From the sequence record ON528738: a stretch of DNA of 64,000 nucleotides. One strand, given 5' to 3'. The notes beneath the pieces were generated by a model that was not told where the DNA came from, made no database searches, and saw nothing but the letters and a program-made list of their open reading frames with translations. Source of the stretch: Shigella phage ESh28. This document shows positions 1 to 48,306 of this stretch, one piece after another (the first letter of the stretch is position 1; each line of letters begins with the position of its first letter). The translations under genes and the position numbers were made by a program.

Positions 1-1
1 A

Positions 2-127
2 GTTAAGCATCCGGAAAAATATCCGCAGCTGACCATCCGTGTATCCGGTTATGCAGTTCGCTTTAACTCTCTGACTCCGGAACAGCAGCGCGACGTTATC
101 GCTCGTACCTTCACCGAGAGCTTGTAA
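2..127 (+). CDS. 3' end of GrcA/PFL-like glycyl-radical domain protein (partial, runs off window start)
   Basis: Frame 2 translates to ...[32 protein letters not shown], the glycyl-radical RVSGY motif of the PFL C-terminus/YfiD family; a T4 homolog (Y06I) is described in the literature. Confidence 0.6.
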
Positions 128-348
128 TGGCAAAGATAATTATTGAAGGTTCTGAAGATGTGCTAAATGCTTTCGCCGAGTGGTTTAGTAATTCAGGCGA
201 ACAGCAATTTAATGAAGCATGGAACATGGGTGATATTAATGGAATTTATCCTACGACAGAAATTTCTGTTCAGGGATATGGCATTCATGAACCTATTCGT
301 TTAGTTGAATATGATTTATGCACTGGTGAGGAAGTCAAATATGATTGA
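127..348 (+). CDS. hypothetical protein, 73 aa
   Basis: Track ORF; TAATG stop-start overlap with upstream gene; no recognisable motif. Confidence 0.5.
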   Translation: MAKIIIEGSEDVLNAFAEWFSNSGEQQFNEAWNMGDINGIYPTTEISVQGYGIHEPIRLVEYDLCTGEEVKYD

Positions 349-607
349 AGATATTAAAGGTTATAAGCCACATACCGACGAAAAAATCGGTAAAGTAAAT
401 GCTATCAAAGATGCTGAAGTTCGTTTAGGACTTATCTTTGATGCTTTATACGATGAATTTTGGGAAGCATTTGATAGCTGTGAAGATGATGAACTCGCGA
501 AGAATTATGCTGAAAGCCTCGATCAGTTAACTATTGCTAAAACGAAACTCAAAGAAGCCAGTATGTGGGCTTGCCGTGCTGTGTTCCAACCAGAGGAAAA
601 ATACTAA
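341..607 (+). CDS. hypothetical protein, 88 aa
   Basis: Track ORF 305..607 trimmed to ATG at 341 with upstream GAGGAAG; ATGA overlap with previous ORF; sits at the T4 vs.4 position by synteny (unverified). Confidence 0.5.
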
Positions 608-885
608 TGGCTCAATTAAGTGCAGGGTTTGGTTATGAATATTATACTGCACCTCGTCGTGTATCTGCCGCTCCTAAGAAAATTCAAAGTCTTGATGACT
701 TCCAAGAAGTAATTCGTAATGCTTTCCAGGACTATGCGCGTTATCTTAAAGAAGATTCACAGGACTGCCTCGAAGAAGATGAAATTGCTTACTATGCGCA
801 GCGTCTTGAACAGCTCAAAAATCTACATGAGGTTCGTGCAGAAGTTTCAAAGTCTATGAATAAATTGATCAGATTTAAAGAATAA
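607..885 (+). CDS. hypothetical protein, 92 aa
   Basis: Track ORF 565..885 trimmed to ATG at 607 (TAATG overlap, GAGGAAAAA upstream). Confidence 0.5.
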
Positions 886-918
886 CTGTTTACTTTTCCT
901 CTTGACTGTGGTATAATT
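885..918 (+). promoter_or_regulatory. T4-type early promoter (GTTTAC -35, 18-nt spacer, TGGTATAAT extended -10)
   Basis: gtttac at 888-893, tataat at 912-917, followed by aagaggag RBS and ATG at 945. Confidence 0.55.
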
Positions 919-944
919 TTTCTATCAGTTAAGAGGAGAATAAC

Positions 945-1406
945 ATGACTATCAATACAGAAGTTTTTATCCGTCGAAATAAGCTCCGTCGTCACTTTGA
1001 GTCGGAGTTTCGTCAAATTAACAATGAGATTCGTGAGGCATCAAAAGCAGCAGGGGTCTCATCGTTTCATCTAAAATATTCTCAGCATCTTCTTGATCGT
1101 GCAATTCAACGGGAGATTGATGAGACATATGTTTTTGAATTATTCCATAAAATAAAAGACCATGTTTTAGAAGTTAATGAATTCCTGAGTATGCCTCCAC
1201 GTCCTGACATTGACGAGGATTTTATTGATGGGGTTGAATATCGTCCTGGACGTTTAGAAATCACAGATGGAAATCTTTGGCTTGGATTTACAGTTTGTAA
1301 ACCTAATGCGAAGTTCAAAGACCCGTCACTTCAGTGCAGGATGGCAATTATCAATAGTCGCCGTTTACCAGGAAAGGCTTCTAAAGCAGTAATTAAAACT
1401 CAATGA
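945..1406 (+). CDS. regB: probable RegB endoribonuclease, 153 aa
   Basis: Length and position (upstream of vs/tk cluster, own early promoter) match T4 RegB as I recall it; sequence identity not verified. Confidence 0.5.
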   Translation: MTINTEVFIRRNKLRRHFESEFRQINNEIREASKAAGVSSFHLKYSQHLLDRAIQREIDETYVFELFHKIKDHVLEVNEFLSMPPRPDIDEDFIDGVEYRPGRLEITDGNLWLGFTVCKPNAKFKDPSLQCRMAIINSRRLPGKASKAVIKTQ

Positions 1407-1413
1407 GGTAAGC

Positions 1414-1959
1414 ATGAGAAAAGCACTACTCGCTGGTCTATTGGCCATTTCAATGATGGCACATAGCTCCGAGCATACTTTCAGTAATGTCCAACTCGAT
1501 AACATGCGTTACGCGTATCAATTCGGGGAACAATTTTCTAAGGATGGAAAATATAAAACACACAAAAATATCCACAAGAGCGGATTAGGTCATATAATGG
1601 CTGCTATTTTATGGCAAGAAAGCTCTGGCGGAGTTAATTTAAAATCTAAACCAAAGCATCACGCCTACGGAATGTTCCAAAATTATTTGCCTACTATGCG
1701 AGCAAGAGTTAAGGAACTTGGTTATAATATGACCGATGCTGAAATAAAAAGAATGTTGAATAAACGATCCAATTCAGCTTCCTGGGCGTACATTGAACTT
1801 TCTTATTGGTTAAATATACATAAGGGCGATATAAGAAAAGCAATATCCTCTTATAATTCGGGATGGAATGTTAAAGCTGGTTCTAAATATGCTTCTGAAG
1901 TCCTAGAAAAGGCTAATTACCTTAAAAATAATAAACTTTTGGAAATAGTAAATGACTAA
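1414..1959 (+). CDS. secreted lytic transglycosylase-like (SLT domain) protein, 181 aa
   Basis: N-terminal signal peptide MRKALLAGLLAISMMAHS; motifs ILWQESSGG and AYGMFQ resemble the catalytic Glu-Ser and GLMQ motifs of family-1 lytic transglycosylases. Confidence 0.55.
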   Translation: MRKALLAGLLAISMMAHSSEHTFSNVQLDNMRYAYQFGEQFSKDGKYKTHKNIHKSGLGHIMAAILWQESSGGVNLKSKPKHHAYGMFQNYLPTMRARVKELGYNMTDAEIKRMLNKRSNSASWAYIELSYWLNIHKGDIRKAISSYNSGWNVKAGSKYASEVLEKANYLKNNKLLEIVND

Positions 1960-2299
1960 AATTTTAGTTTTATGTATAGGATTAATTTCATTTTCTGCTT
2001 CTGCGTCAGCAGATACATCATATACTGAAATTAGAGAATATGTAAACCGCACTGCGGCAGATTATTGTGGGAAAAATAAAGCATGCCAAGCTGAATTTGC
2101 ACAGAAATTAATATATGCATATAAAGACGGAGAAAGAGATAAATCAAGCAGATACAAAAACGATACATTATTAAAACGATATGCTAAAAAGTGGAATACC
2201 TTAGAATGTTCAGTTGCGGAGGAGAAAGATAAAGCCGCTTGTCATTCAATGGTTGACCGTTTAGTAGATTCTTATAATCGAGGATTGAGTACTAGATGA
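1952..2299 (+). CDS. small secreted protein, 115 aa (T4 vs position)
   Basis: Signal peptide MTKILVLCIGLISFSASASA; length equals T4 Vs but identity not verified. Confidence 0.5.
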   Translation: MTKILVLCIGLISFSASASADTSYTEIREYVNRTAADYCGKNKACQAEFAQKLIYAYKDGERDKSSRYKNDTLLKRYAKKWNTLECSVAEEKDKAACHSMVDRLVDSYNRGLSTR

Positions 2300-2775
2300 T
2301 TGTAAAATATATCAAGGGCGATATTGTCGCCCTATTTCTTCAAGGTAATATTATTGCGCACGGGTGCAATTGCTTCCACACAATGGGCTCTGGCGTAGCG
2401 GGTCAATTAGCAAGAGCCTATCCCAAAATTTTAGAAATAGATAAAACCACTACCGAGTACGGTTCTCGTGATAAATTAGGCGATATGTCTATTGTTTTTA
2501 AACATAGTCCTACGGGATTTGGTATATGCTATAACCTGTATACACAATACGAACCGGGTCCTAATCTTGATTATGGTGCTTTAGTAAACTGCATGATAGA
2601 ATTAAATCTACAGGCAGAAACCCTTTTGTTTAAACCAGTAATTTACATTCCACGCATAGGTTGTGGTATTGCTGGCGGTGATTGGGATAAGGTTTCTAAA
2701 TTAATCGACATGTTTACTCCTGATATTGATTTGATAGTGGTGGATTATGAAAGTACATTACCCGCATCCGTTTGA
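2296..2775 (+). CDS. macro-domain-like protein (possible ADP-ribose derivative processing), 159 aa
   Basis: KGDI...HGCNC...GSGVAGQLARAYP and later IPRIGCGIAGG resemble macro-domain Gly-rich ADP-ribose binding loops (Poa1p-like variant). Confidence 0.5.
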   Translation: MIVKYIKGDIVALFLQGNIIAHGCNCFHTMGSGVAGQLARAYPKILEIDKTTTEYGSRDKLGDMSIVFKHSPTGFGICYNLYTQYEPGPNLDYGALVNCMIELNLQAETLLFKPVIYIPRIGCGIAGGDWDKVSKLIDMFTPDIDLIVVDYESTLPASV

Positions 2776-2959
2776 TCCTAAAAACAAAGCAGAAATTATT
2801 CGTCAATGGGAACGCATTTGCCGTACTAAATGTCCAATTAATAGTCCACATGATGTAGATAAAGACTACATTGGAACATTCGTTGAATATACCTTTATTG
2901 ATAAGAAAGGTCGTAAACAACATGTAGAAGAATATTGCTTAAAGGTTACATGGTTATGA
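2747..2959 (+). CDS. hypothetical protein, 70 aa
   Basis: Track ORF overlapping end of previous gene in another frame. Confidence 0.4.
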   Translation: MKVHYPHPFDPKNKAEIIRQWERICRTKCPINSPHDVDKDYIGTFVEYTFIDKKGRKQHVEEYCLKVTWL

Positions 2960-3162
2960 GCCAAACTAGTATTCTTAAAAATGCCCACTGTGAAAAGTGT
3001 AAGTGGCCGGTTGTTTTTGCTTTATGTAATGATGAAATGGCTTGTGATTTCGATTATTGGTGCTATTGTTCTAATAAAGGATGCATCAATCATAAAGGTG
3101 AAGGATTTTATTCAGGATTTTATCCTTATCCTGATTTCGTTAAAGAAGGTAAACCAAAATGA
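2950..3162 (+). CDS. Cys-rich small protein, about 70 aa
   Basis: Track ORF 2935..3162 trimmed to internal ATG; many Cys (CEKCKW...CNDEMACDFDYWCYCSNKGC) suggesting metal binding. Confidence 0.4.
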   Translation: MVMSQTSILKNAHCEKCKWPVVFALCNDEMACDFDYWCYCSNKGCINHKGEGFYSGFYPYPDFVKEGKPK

Positions 3163-3332
3163 ATAGTTTTGAGTTACAATACGAAGTGTTACGTGAGCTT
3201 GATAATTTAATTGAACTCGCTGTTAATAAAGGTTTTGCCATTGGAATCGGTCAAAAAGATACTGGTCATTTAACTATGGAAATATTTAAGCAAAAGCGAA
3301 TTATTTTAAAACTCCTGGAAATTAATATATGA
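3159..3332 (+). CDS. hypothetical protein, 57 aa (below track cutoff)
   Basis: ATG at 3159 overlapping previous stop; ends in ATATGA overlap with next gene. Confidence 0.4.
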   Translation: MNSFELQYEVLRELDNLIELAVNKGFAIGIGQKDTGHLTMEIFKQKRIILKLLEINI

Positions 3333-3514
3333 GTCTGAGTAAAGAACAAAAAGATAAATTGTTTGAGCTTATCCATGAACTTCTAGATGAGCATACAGAA
3401 ACAAACACCTTTTATGATGAATACGGCCCGCTATCTCCCGAACAGCAGGAAGAATTTGTTGATCGGTTTGATAAGAAAGAAAATGAATTAATAGCTTATG
3501 TGAATACGCTTTAA
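3329..3514 (+). CDS. hypothetical acidic protein, 61 aa
   Basis: Track ORF, translationally coupled to flanking ORFs. Confidence 0.45.
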   Translation: MSLSKEQKDKLFELIHELLDEHTETNTFYDEYGPLSPEQQEEFVDRFDKKENELIAYVNTL

Positions 3515-3523
3515 GAAGGTGAT

Positions 3524-4105
3524 ATGGCGAGTTTAATTTTTACTTATGCAGCAATGAATGCTGGAAAATCTGCTTCTCTTTTGACTGCTGCGCATAATTA
3601 TAAAGAACGTGGAATGAGTGTATTAGTTCTTAAGCCTGCTATTGATACTCGCGATTCTGTCTGTGAAGTTGTTTCTCGCATTGGAATTAAACAGGAAGCG
3701 AATATTATTACAGATGATATGGATATTTTCGAATTCTATAAATGGGCCGAAGCACAAAAAGATATTCATTGCGTATTTGTAGATGAAGCTCAGTTTTTAA
3801 AAACTGAACAGGTGCACCAATTAAGCCGAATTGTTGATACATATAATGTTCCTGTTATGACTTATGGATTAAGGACTGATTTCGCTGGAAAATTGTTTGA
3901 AGGTTCTAAAGAACTTTTAGCGATTGCAGATAAACTTATTGAACTAAAGGCAGTTTGTCATTGCGGCAAAAAAGCGATTATGACAGCTCGATTAATGGAA
4001 GATGGAACACCAGTTAAAGAAGGTAATCAAATCTGTATTGGTGATGAAATTTATGTTTCTTTGTGCAGAAAACATTGGAATGAATTAACTAAAAAGCTCG
4101 GTTAG
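3524..4105 (+). CDS. tk: thymidine kinase
   Basis: 193 aa; MASLIFTYAAMNAGKSASLL P-loop and C-terminal CHCGKK...C zinc ribbon typical of TK1-type kinases; matches T4 Tk length. Confidence 0.9.
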   Translation: MASLIFTYAAMNAGKSASLLTAAHNYKERGMSVLVLKPAIDTRDSVCEVVSRIGIKQEANIITDDMDIFEFYKWAEAQKDIHCVFVDEAQFLKTEQVHQLSRIVDTYNVPVMTYGLRTDFAGKLFEGSKELLAIADKLIELKAVCHCGKKAIMTARLMEDGTPVKEGNQICIGDEIYVSLCRKHWNELTKKLG

Positions 4106-4114
4106 TGCAAAAGT

Positions 4115-4122
4115 TATAAATA
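4115..4122 (+). promoter_or_regulatory. T4 late promoter core TATAAATA
   Basis: Exact tataaata 25 nt upstream of the ORF starting at 4148; rI is known to be late-expressed. Confidence 0.5.
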
Positions 4123-4147
4123 GGTTTATCTAACTAAAGGGGTATAT

Positions 4148-4360
4148 ATGCTACAATTAACTGAAAAGCAACTTCGCAATCTTACTGTGCTTCAATTAGA
4201 TGAAATTCGTAGGGAAGTTGGAAATATCATTTCAGCTTTGCGTCGAGAAGTATCACTCAACCAATCTCCGGCAGACTATACTAGATTGCGAAATTTTGAA
4301 AAATACCTTGATAAAGTTAAGGCCGTGCATCGGCATAAAGTAAATACAGGACAAAAATGA
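4148..4360 (+). CDS. hypothetical protein, 70 aa (T4 rI.-1 position)
   Basis: Track ORF with GGGG RBS; sits between tk and rI. Confidence 0.5.
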
Positions 4361-41581: not shown

Positions 41582-42214
41582 ATGATTTATTATATGCACA
41601 AAAATCCACCGTTTAAATACGGTAAATTTCCTGATGCACAATGTTATAACATAACGCCTGATGAAAATAACCGTGGATATCTTATTGGCACAATTTTTGT
41701 AATTGTTAAAGATAACGAAATCGTTGCCTGGGCAGATTTTAAAGGTACAACATATGATGTTAATCCGGTGCCTTTCACATATTACAATTTAATGGATTTG
41801 GCATACGATTATAATTGGTTTAATCATGACACGTTGGCTCATATTGAAGGTGTAGGATTTGACATCTCTTATTCTAGCTACTCATTGTGTCCTATGAGTC
41901 GGGCTCATAAAGAACCTGAATATTTTTCATTTAGGAAACGTGTAAACTTTAAACGCAACACAGAGTATGTCGGTGGAATCTTTGTTAAAGATAATCGAAT
42001 TACTCGCATTATTTATCCTTTGGGCTGTGGTCAAAAAGATATTGATGTTGATTTAGACTTTACTGAAAACATCATTAATCATATTGCTTCTGTGTATTTT
42101 GGTATCGATCACAAAATTGTAATATGTGGATATGAATTACCGTTTGAAGAACAACCTAAAGTAAAAGTTTCTATTGACGATCAAATTTTTAATGCTTTTA
42201 TGAATAAAGGTTAA
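41582..42214 (+). CDS. 61.2-like protein, 210 aa (possible anti-DarT factor AdfA homolog)
   Basis: Track ORF; position matches T4 61.2; shares VKDN motif and 14-aa C-terminal tail with the next ORF. Confidence 0.5.
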   Translation: MIYYMHKNPPFKYGKFPDAQCYNITPDENNRGYLIGTIFVIVKDNEIVAWADFKGTTYDVNPVPFTYYNLMDLAYDYNWFNHDTLAHIEGVGFDISYSSYSLCPMSRAHKEPEYFSFRKRVNFKRNTEYVGGIFVKDNRITRIIYPLGCGQKDIDVDLDFTENIINHIASVYFGIDHKIVICGYELPFEEQPKVKVSIDDQIFNAFMNKG

Positions 42215-47083: not shown

Positions 47084-47707
47084 ATGATTATTAATCCTGT
47101 AGATGTTGAACAATTATCTATAAAAGCTGAAAGCGTTGATTTTCAATATGATATGTATAAAAAGGTCTGTGAAAAATTTACTGACTTCGAGCAGTCAGTT
47201 CTTTGGCAATGTATGGAAGCTAAAAAGAATGAAGCTCTTCACCGGCAGTTGAATAAAATCATTAAAAAGCATTTAACTAAATCACCTTATCAGCTATATC
47301 GTGGTATATCAAAATCGACAAAAGAGCTCATTAAAGGTTTACAAGTTGGAGAAGTGTTTTCAACGAACAGAGTAGATTCATTTACTACTAGTTTGCATAC
47401 AGCGTGTTCTTTTTCTTATGCTGAATATTTTACTGAAACAATACTTCGCTTAAAAACTGATAAAGCTTTTAATTACTCTGACCATATCAGCGATATTATA
47501 CTTTCTTCTCCTAATACTGAGTTTAAGTATACATATGAAGATACTGATGGATTAGATTCAGAACGTACTGATAACTTAATGATGATTGTGCGTGAACAAG
47601 AATGGATGATTCCAATTGGAAAGTATAAAATAACTTCTATTTCAAAAGAAAAATTACACGATTCATTTGGAACATTTAAAGTGTATGATATTGAGGTAGT
47701 TGAATGA
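47084..47707 (+). CDS. modB: ADP-ribosyltransferase ModB
   Basis: 207 aa; R-S-E ART motifs (YRG, TTS, EQEWMIP); length and order match T4 modB. Confidence 0.65.
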   Translation: MIINPVDVEQLSIKAESVDFQYDMYKKVCEKFTDFEQSVLWQCMEAKKNEALHRQLNKIIKKHLTKSPYQLYRGISKSTKELIKGLQVGEVFSTNRVDSFTTSLHTACSFSYAEYFTETILRLKTDKAFNYSDHISDIILSSPNTEFKYTYEDTDGLDSERTDNLMMIVREQEWMIPIGKYKITSISKEKLHDSFGTFKVYDIEVVE

Positions 47708-48306
47708 AATATTCAGCAATGCAATTAAAAGATTTTAAAATCAAATCAATGGATGCATCTGTGCGTGCTTCTATTCGTGAAGAATTACTTTCTGAAGGAT
47801 TTAATTTATCTGAAATTGAACTTTTAATTCATTGTATTACTAATAAGCCAGACGATCATTCTTGGTTAAATGAAATAATCAAATCTCGTTTGGTTCCAAA
47901 CGATAAACCTCTTTGGAGAGGTGTTCCAGCTGAGACTAAGCAGGTGTTAAATCAAGGAATTGATATTATTACATTTGATAAAGTCGTATCAGCTTCATAT
48001 GATAAAAATATAGCTCTACATTTTGCTTCTGGATTAGAATACAATACACAAGTTATTTTTGAATTCAAAGCTCCTATGGTATTTAATTTCCAGGAGTATG
48101 CTATAAAAGCTCTACGTTGTAAAGAATACAGTCCAAGTTTTAAATTTCCGGATAGCCATCGTTATCGTAATATGGAATTAGTTTCAGATGAACAGGAAGT
48201 AATGATACCAGCTGGAAGTGTATTTAGAATTGCGGATAGATATGAGTATAAAAAGTATTCAACATACACTATCTATACTCTTGATTTTGAAAGATTTAAT
48301 CTATAA
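47704..48306 (+). CDS. modA: ADP-ribosyltransferase ModA
   Basis: 200 aa; R-S-E ART motifs (WRG, SAS, EQEVMIP); length and order match T4 modA. Confidence 0.65.
   Translation: MKYSAMQLKDFKIKSMDASVRASIREELLSEGFNLSEIELLIHCITNKPDDHSWLNEIIKSRLVPNDKPLWRGVPAETKQVLNQGIDIITFDKVVSASYDKNIALHFASGLEYNTQVIFEFKAPMVFNFQEYAIKALRCKEYSPSFKFPDSHRYRNMELVSDEQEVMIPAGSVFRIADRYEYKKYSTYTIYTLDFERFNL

Follow-up and report, generated by a model that had tools for sequence, protein, structure and literature searches.

The open reading frame at 2296..2775 on the plus strand of the window (the whole 64,000-nucleotide stretch of DNA that was analyzed) encodes a macrodomain protein of the ALC1/TARG1-like class, and its homology and gene order indicate that it is the tk.4/adfM gene of the T4 family, a gene that is already known. 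The product, Tk.4, is probably a Gln-type thymidine-ADP-ribose glycohydrolase, carried by the phage as an orphan, that reverses the damage caused by DarT2. Since the domain assignment of tk.4 is about twenty years old and its anti-defense role was published in 2025, the finding adds no new biology. The fold, class, conserved residues, synteny and allele replacement described here come from this analysis, whereas others established the DarTG2 phenotype of T4 tk.4 and characterized SCO6735 biochemically. For the window allele, which is 58% identical to that of T4, we infer that the activity and target would be the same as for the T4 allele.

The coding sequence starts with ATG, includes its stop codon within 2296..2775 and encodes a single macrodomain of 159 residues; an earlier note made on this DNA had given the same ORF and length, and the ORF list agrees with it. 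The stop codon of vs and the start codon of tk.4 overlap (ATGA), and the 3' end of tk.4 overlaps the start of tk.3 by 29 nt according to the ORF coordinates (2747..2775, plus strand). At this 3' edge, a 13-nt indel relative to T4 (alignment columns 859-871) extends the ORF 29 nt into tk.3. The same indel lengthens the C-terminus by four residues compared with T4 Tk.4, and in the short tail that results, residues 156-159 have pLDDT values below 50 and are predicted to be disordered in the AlphaFold2 model. In a large protein collection, 794 homologs were found at E <= 1e-3 (best 2.6e-101), a tblastn search with Tk.4 matched 2,789 phage genome records from many genera, and Escherichia phage PBM-1 carries an annotated protein identical to that of the window. 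A chance ORF was dismissed because of the 794 homologs and the identical annotated protein in PBM-1. The DNA around tk.4 matches many Tequatrovirus (T4-like) genomes at 98% identity, and the gene order in annotated relatives is regB, vs.1, vs, tk.4, tk.3, two small RB32-type ORFs, tk.2, tk, rI.1 and rI; based on the order vs - tk.4 - tk.3 in these relatives, the ORF was assigned as tk.4. The homology to T4 Tk.4 (NP_049723) is full-length and gapless, with 58% identity over 155/155 residues and an E-value of 1e-70, and PHROG 335 was matched at 1e-71. The gene tk lies downstream at 3524-4105, so that placing the ORF in a cluster upstream of tk, as the earlier note did, was correct. The same applies to the ADP-ribosyltransferases that it reported elsewhere in the window, as ModB (47084-47704) and ModA (47704-48303) together occupy 47084-48303 and are each 97% identical to T4.

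The T4 RefSeq entry for tk.4 carries the text 'contains A1pp phosphatase motif', and a comparative paper of 2006 gave an A1pp match for the tk.4 orthologs (PMC1524935). In 2024, T4 lacking both adfA and adfN was found to be still resistant to DarTG2, and it was noted that T-even phages must have further counter-defense (10.1101/2024.07.11.602962). In a transposon-sequencing preprint of November 2025, tk.4 was the only gene to reach significance on a DarTG2 host; the authors showed that a clean deletion of tk.4 makes T4 sensitive to DarTG2 and named the gene adfM, anti-DarT factor Macrodomain (10.1101/2025.11.20.689424). The authors pointed out the structural similarity of Tk.4 to the DarG macrodomain, stated that enzymatic ADP-ribose removal was likely from the genetics of the T4 allele, and found the gene to be dispensable on E. 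coli K-12 without DarTG2, where its loss carried no fitness cost in the screen (10.1101/2025.11.20.689424). The suggestion in the earlier note that a phage macrodomain could remove ADP-ribose installed by host defenses is supported by this requirement of T4 tk.4 for DarTG2 resistance (10.1101/2025.11.20.689424); both the idea and the DarTG experiment proposed with it were right and had already been published for T4. The T-even genes against DarTG systems are adfA, adfN and adfM, of which tk.4/adfM explains the resistance to DarTG2. In a 2026 paper, PhiKZ gp104 was independently named AdfM and was shown to remove DarT2-installed ADP-ribose from DNA in vitro (PMC13309987). The name AdfM is now used for two proteins, T4 Tk.4 of Gln-type and PhiKZ gp104 of Lys-type. 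Proteins identical or near-identical to Tk.4 are listed in databases as 'phosphatase', 'RNase III inhibitor', 'Poa1p-like family protein', 'macro domain protein', 'MazF family toxin-antitoxin system protein' and 'leucine aminopeptidase'.

The resemblance to macro domains, which had been proposed from the letters of the sequence, was confirmed by Pfam, by a sequence search of the PDB, and by an AlphaFold2 model compared using Foldseek. Pfam Macro (PF01661) matched residues 22-136 of Tk.4 at profile positions 2-117 of 118, with 32 bits against a gathering score of 22. The PDB sequence search returned BT1257 (4e-10), Poa1p (2e-9), SCO6735 (8e-8), the M. tuberculosis DarG macrodomain (5e-5) and human TARG1 (0.01). 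The AlphaFold2 model, for which an alignment of 62 homologs was used as input, had a pLDDT of 93.8 and a pTM of 0.89 with disorder confined to the last four residues, and Foldseek against the PDB matched it to TARG1, Poa1p, BT1257, DarG and SCO6735 at E-values of 1e-9 to 1e-7. Structure prediction, which the earlier note had suggested as a check, thus gave a macro fold, with the three-layer α/β/α arrangement present in Tk.4. In both structure and sequence, Tk.4 is nearer to the ALC1/TARG1-like class, used here for TARG1, DarG, SCO6735, BT1257 and Poa1p, than to the MacroD, macroH2A, PARG and viral Mac1 classes. A profile of the Tk.4 family ranked BT1257 highest (3e-21), followed by SCO6735 and TARG1 (approximately 1e-16 each), Poa1p (2.5e-14) and DarG (2.7e-11), and the NCBIfam MacroD/YmdB-type model scored 15.7 bits against a cut-off of 291.

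Both Gly-rich motifs quoted in the earlier note are present in Tk.4, AHGCNCFHTMGSGVAGQLARAYP at residues 21-43 and IPRIGCGIAGG at residues 118-128, and from these conserved loops 1 and 2 we infer that the protein would bind ADP-ribose. Loop 1 contains the predicted catalytic motif H22-G-C-N25-C-F-H-T-M-G-S-G-V-A35 (2359..2400, plus strand), which was delineated from alignments. Within this motif, the 62-sequence alignment shows no variation at H22, G23, N25, C26, G33 or A35, and the same six residues are conserved in 118/118 or 120/120 homologs, with H22 and N25 each found in 118/118. His24 and Asn27 of SCO6735 align to H22 and N25, and their mutation abolished DNA de-ADP-ribosylation or nearly so (PMC9411070). 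N25 also aligns to an Asn in the loop-1 motif of DarG; its equivalence to N23 of PhiKZ AdfM, whose mutation lowers activity (PMC13309987), is a by-eye reading from that DarG motif. The motif N80-L-Y-T-Q84-Y-E-P-G-P-N90 (2533..2565, plus strand) was placed by profile alignment to TARG1, BT1257 and SCO6735, in which Q84 falls where TARG1 (K84) and DarG (K80) have their catalytic Lys. When aligned using hmmalign, this position is Gln in the window, T4, BT1257 and SCO6735 and Lys in TARG1 and both DarGs, and it is Gln in 120/120 homologs. The Q85A and Q85E mutants of SCO6735 are inactive (PMC9411070). Loop 2, the putative diphosphate-binding loop, comprises P119-R-I-G-C-G-I-A-G-G-D-W130 (2650..2685, plus strand; motif alignment), in which P119, G122, G124 and W130 are invariant among the 62 sequences, and it matches the GCGLAGG-W of BT1257 and SCO6735. 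Considering that Asp125 of TARG1 aligns to A126 of Tk.4 and that K84 is replaced by Gln84, the Lys/Asp dyad is absent from Tk.4. As such, a TARG1-type Lys/Asp mechanism was rejected on the profile alignment.

While the genes around tk.4 are close to those of T4, with protein identities of 100% for Vs, Vs.1 and rI, 99% for RegB and Tk and 94% for Tk.3, that of Tk.4 is 58%. Compared with T4 in a sliding window of DNA, the identity is 97-100% as far as position 2335 (codon 13), 30-77% over 2336-2772 and 93-100% from 2803. It thus falls from about 99% to about 60% at codon 13 and recovers past the stop codon, and this divergence in a near-identical backbone marks a recombinant block at 2336..2800 (plus strand), comprising the tk.4 body and the first ~25 nt past its stop codon. 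In Dhakavirus-type loci such as that of IME281, identity to the window is 80-97% over the tk.4 body but only 40-70% over the vs flank. Because the T4 and Dhakavirus identity patterns mirror each other, the tk.4 body is taken to have moved as a cassette between T-even lineages, an allele replacement that this analysis shows. Synonymous sites between window and T4 tk.4 are saturated (pS 0.74) and dN/dS is approximately 0.13, and recent positive selection was rejected on these values as the cause of the 58% identity. The saturated synonymous sites together with the low dN/dS indicate that the window tk.4 is an old allele imported by recombination, which fits the Dhakavirus comparison. Conservation between the two alleles is 84% over residues 1-43, 65-67% in the two loop segments and 24-53% elsewhere, and is thus concentrated in the pocket-forming segments. 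The H22, N25 and Q84 core is identical in both. In contrast, loop 2 reads GCGIAGGDW in the window, which is the family consensus, and GAGIGKGNW in T4 Tk.4, which is unusual; the T4-type Lys at position 127 was found in 3/120 clusters only. Proteins with 90% or higher identity to the window type are present in 312 records of the phage collection, compared with 224 records at 90% or above for the T4 type and a further 159 at 80-90%. The allele tested against DarTG2 is the less common type with an unusual diphosphate loop, and the window allele occurs in at least 312 sequenced phages. It is conceivable, though in our view unlikely, that the diverged tk.4/adfM alleles are functionally specialized, either by matching DarT2 variants through direct binding or by acting on different ADP-ribosylated nucleic-acid substrates. 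If they were, the T4 allele and that of the window, the latter being commoner and nearer the family consensus, could not replace one another.

Divergence from T4 was also observed at other positions in the window. At 41582-42211 (plus strand), the homolog of gene 61.2 (adfA, an anti-DarTG1 factor) is 77% identical to T4 while most neighbors checked are 94-100% identical, so that a second anti-DarT gene in the window is also a divergent allele. The segment between tk.3 and tk (~2953-3520, plus strand) is replaced relative to T4, with three small ORFs in place of T4 tk.2 and tk.1. These ORFs, located on the plus strand at about 2935/2956-3162, 3159-3332 and 3329-3514, are annotated in relatives as RB32ORF111c, RB32ORF110c and tk.2, respectively, and only the last has a T4 counterpart (Tk.2, 54% identical).

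A GC-rich hairpin, AGGGCGA-TATTG-TCGCCCT (2315-2333, plus strand), lies inside codons 7-13 of tk.4 in an otherwise AT-rich genome. It sits at the 5' edge of the divergent block, with the break in window/T4 identity directly after it, and is unannotated in the 1986 T4 record. The hairpin is kept in T4 and Dhakavirus phages and absent from most distant homologs. A stem of -10 kcal/mol or lower was found at this position in 16 of 78 related viral loci, and in all but one of those 16 it ranks first in stability among the 23-mers of the gene, coming close to this in the exception (L064). Several stem variants occur, including two-sided changes (L021/L025; L034 and phage A6-1), and the peptide G-D-x-[IV]-A, encoded with the codons GGC and GCC, accounts for some of the symmetry. 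When the hairpin was considered as a general recombination boundary, no consistent boundary was seen, as the other allele pairs have divergent flanks themselves. As an intrinsic terminator the hairpin was discounted: a simple scan flagged it, but the region has only four terminator-like sites where 2.1 +/- 1.4 are expected, its 66-nt context folds at a z-score of only -1.84, and the U-run is weak in the window. The hairpin may be an attenuator, an RNA stability element or a recombination edge, or may result from codon choice, and it might serve as a regulatory or recombination element for the tk.4 cassette. A sigma-70 promoter scan of 1-4300 gave 13 sites, fewer than in shuffled sequence (16.7), and was uninformative on expression; the 1986 T4 record places a hand-predicted promoter directly upstream of the T4 tk.4 ORF.

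In the mechanism that we favor, Tk.4 would be produced early in infection and act as a free-standing ADP-ribosyl glycohydrolase of the macrodomain type. As the DarT2 enzyme of a host DarTG2 system puts ADP-ribose on thymidines in single-stranded DNA, Tk.4 would strip it off again so that replication of the phage DNA could continue, making the protein in effect an orphan antitoxin carried by the phage. The distal ribose would be positioned by the invariant Q84, itself held by Asn25 beside His22, and hydrolysis would rely on an activated water instead of a catalytic lysine. T4-type DNA contains modified cytosines. The target motif of DarT2, TNTC, contains a C (PMC13309987), which bears on which DNA would be modified and rescued during infection and was counted against this mechanism. 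We also counted against it that the T4 evidence is genetic and comes from a single preprint, that Lys34 and Val25 of SCO6735, both tied to its DNA activity, are not conserved in Tk.4, that Tk.4 is acidic (pI 5.0), and that loop 2 differs between the window allele and the tested allele of T4. The difference at Lys34 is not disqualifying, because TARG1, which is reported to be active on thymine-ADP-ribose (PMC13036486), has Ala there too.

Other roles for Tk.4 were weighed against this one. The alternative that came closest is an anti-defense enzyme with a broader or different substrate, such as RNA (e.g. uracil-linked ADP-ribose) or proteins that another host ADP-ribosyltransferase has modified, so that DarT2 reversal would be one activity among others or would not be that of the window allele. 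Uracil-linked ADP-ribose on RNA is hydrolyzed by SCO6735, TARG1 and DarG alike (PMC13036486), and SCO6735 has protein substrates as well (PMC9411070), while the window allele differs from that of T4 in loop 2 and in most surface residues, and several deeply diverged alleles circulate among T-even phages. However, the catalytic core is common to both alleles and the purifying selection (dN/dS ~0.13) suggests a conserved function; moreover, a bacterial defense that ADP-ribosylates uracil in RNA is not described in the cited literature, and the adenine modification by CmdT is described as irreversible (PMC13036486). We consider this alternative quite unlikely, although a broader range of nucleic-acid or protein substrates would be plausible as an addition to DarT2 reversal. 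It is also improbable that Tk.4 is a housekeeping small-molecule enzyme, namely an ADP-ribose-1''-phosphate phosphatase like Poa1p or an O-acetyl-ADP-ribose deacetylase. That function is implied by the legacy names 'phosphatase', 'A1pp phosphatase motif', 'Poa1p-like family protein' and 'RNase III inhibitor'. To our knowledge, tRNA repair in T4 by polynucleotide kinase and RNA ligase yields no ADP-ribose-1''-phosphate, which counts against such an enzyme. The names themselves were carried over from domain matches and not from tests (PMC1524935), and the sole phenotype found for T4 tk.4 was the loss of DarTG2 resistance, the gene being otherwise dispensable on K-12 (10.1101/2025.11.20.689424). 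In addition, BT1257, SCO6735 and TARG1 outscore Poa1p, and the MacroD/YmdB-type model falls far short (15.7 bits versus 291).

Protection could in principle come mainly from binding, with Tk.4 blocking DarT2 directly or sequestering ADP-ribosylated DNA without turnover. The dead Q85A mutant of SCO6735 is a stronger inhibitor of DarT in vitro than the dead forms of DarG and TARG1 (PMC9411070), and surface residues are the most divergent part between the alleles, as expected of a co-evolving interface. We nevertheless regard this as very improbable, given that the C-terminal DarT-binding domain of DarG is absent from Tk.4 (159 residues, DarG model positions 2-142 of 338) and that the catalytic residues are invariant in 118-120 homologs, an invariance that implies selection for catalysis. 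The least probable role, to which we give almost no credence, is that of an eraser of the phage's own Alt, ModA and ModB marks on RNA polymerase, ribosomal protein S1, EF-Tu and others. A writer and an eraser in one genome is a natural idea, with ModA and ModB encoded in the same window. However, tk.4 and modA/modB are approximately 45 kb apart, homologs of Tk.4 occur in about 2,790 phage records of many genera, which may or may not carry Mod or Alt genes, and the Alt and Mod enzymes of T4 modify arginine. Although SCO6735 and TARG1 do act on Glu/Asp-linked ADP-ribose of proteins (PMC9411070), the substrates reported for the TARG1/SCO6735/DarG class are Glu/Asp esters and thymine or uracil bases, and activity on Arg-linked ADP-ribose is unreported for the class in the cited work (PMC9411070, PMC13036486). 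The loss of tk.4 likewise carried no fitness cost in the T4 transposon screen when DarTG2 was absent (10.1101/2025.11.20.689424).

Compared with known systems, Tk.4 is distinct from DarG, whose macrodomain structures are available from Thermus aquaticus (5M31/5M3E) and M. tuberculosis (5M3I). Membership in DarG was rejected, as the scores were far under the cut-offs, the Lys is replaced by Gln and the second domain is absent. The NCBIfam DarG equivalog NF048014 gave 27.7 bits for Tk.4 against a cut-off of 250, and the PADLOC DarG model gave 27.5 bits for Tk.4 and 132.9 for PhiKZ gp104. The catalytic Lys80 of DarG (Taq) lies in an FPTK motif where Tk.4 has Gln84. DarG also has a second, C-terminal DarT-binding domain and an adjacent darT, whereas Tk.4 covers only positions 2-142 of the 338-position DarG model and has vs and tk.3 as its neighbors. 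PhiKZ gp104, on the other hand, is a true DarG-type protein, with a match to Mtb DarG at E = 9e-25 and the FPTK lysine motif. Judged by these motifs and matches, T4-type Tk.4 and PhiKZ gp104, although both called AdfM, are members of different macrodomain subfamilies with the same proposed job. The PADLOC DarG scores of the two kinds of AdfM differ likewise, at 132.9 for the Lys-type gp104 and 27.5-36 for the Gln-type Tk.4.

Human TARG1/OARD1 (PDB 4J5R/4J5S) was the top Foldseek match (E = 1e-9, TM 0.72-0.84) and has a similar size and a common His in loop 1. Its catalytic dyad Lys84/Asp125 is Gln84/Ala126 in Tk.4, and the Ser of its loop 1 is Asn. TARG1 removes thymine- and uracil-linked ADP-ribose as well (PMC13036486). 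Yeast Poa1p (PDB 6LFQ-6LFU), an ADP-ribose-1''-phosphate phosphatase, ranks under BT1257, SCO6735 and TARG1 with the Tk.4 family profile. Of its probed residues, His23 aligns to H22, Ser30 to T29 and Phe152 to A126 in a pairwise alignment, and its substrate is a small molecule without known relevance to T4 infection.

The closest likeness is to SCO6735 of Streptomyces coelicolor (PDB 5E3B) and BT1257 of Bacteroides (PDB 2AFC/2FG1), the Gln-type members of the ALC1/TARG1-like class. Tk.4 shares with them the H-x-C-N loop 1, the N-x-x-x-Q motif and the GCG[IL]AGG-W loop 2, and equivalents of the essential Gln, Asn27 and His24 are all present. Experiments have shown that SCO6735 hydrolyzes thymidine-ADP-ribose on DNA and that it protects both E. 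coli and Streptomyces against DarT; its activity is lost, or almost lost, in the mutants Q85A, Q85E and N27S, and a water-mediated, lysine-independent mechanism was proposed (PMC9411070). However, the identity of Tk.4 to SCO6735 and BT1257 is only about 26-29%, and Tk.4 is encoded by a phage, in contrast to both. Val25 of SCO6735, the proposed water-positioning residue, is Gly23 in Tk.4 and Gly in 118/118 homologs, and Val/Ile25 is described as a feature specific to SCO6735 (PMC9411070). Lys34, whose mutation K34E leaves SCO6735 nearly inactive on DNA (PMC9411070), is Ser32 in Tk.4; among the homologs, 94 have Ala at this position, 21 have Ser and 5 have Gly. The extended mobile loop past the Gln in SCO6735 and BT1257 (Lys89, Lys94) is 5-6 residues shorter in the Tk.4 family according to profile alignments, and the DNA-binding site of SCO6735 is described as positively charged (PMC9411070), whereas Tk.4 is acidic. 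A stand-alone chromosomal gene of Pelagimonas phthalicica (L004 6001-6459, P0094) encodes a homolog 40% identical to the phage protein, like the orphan SCO6735; at this one bacterial locus examined, the neighboring genes are unrelated, and no conserved toxin, DarT or other ADP-ribosyltransferase was found within 6 kb. Taken all together, the aligned residues indicate that Tk.4 resembles SCO6735 mechanistically more than DarG, although it is not a plain SCO6735 ortholog. T4-type AdfM would thus be a lysine-free, SCO6735-like enzyme and not a DarG mimic, and designs of inactive mutants should therefore target Gln84 and Asn25 rather than a lysine.
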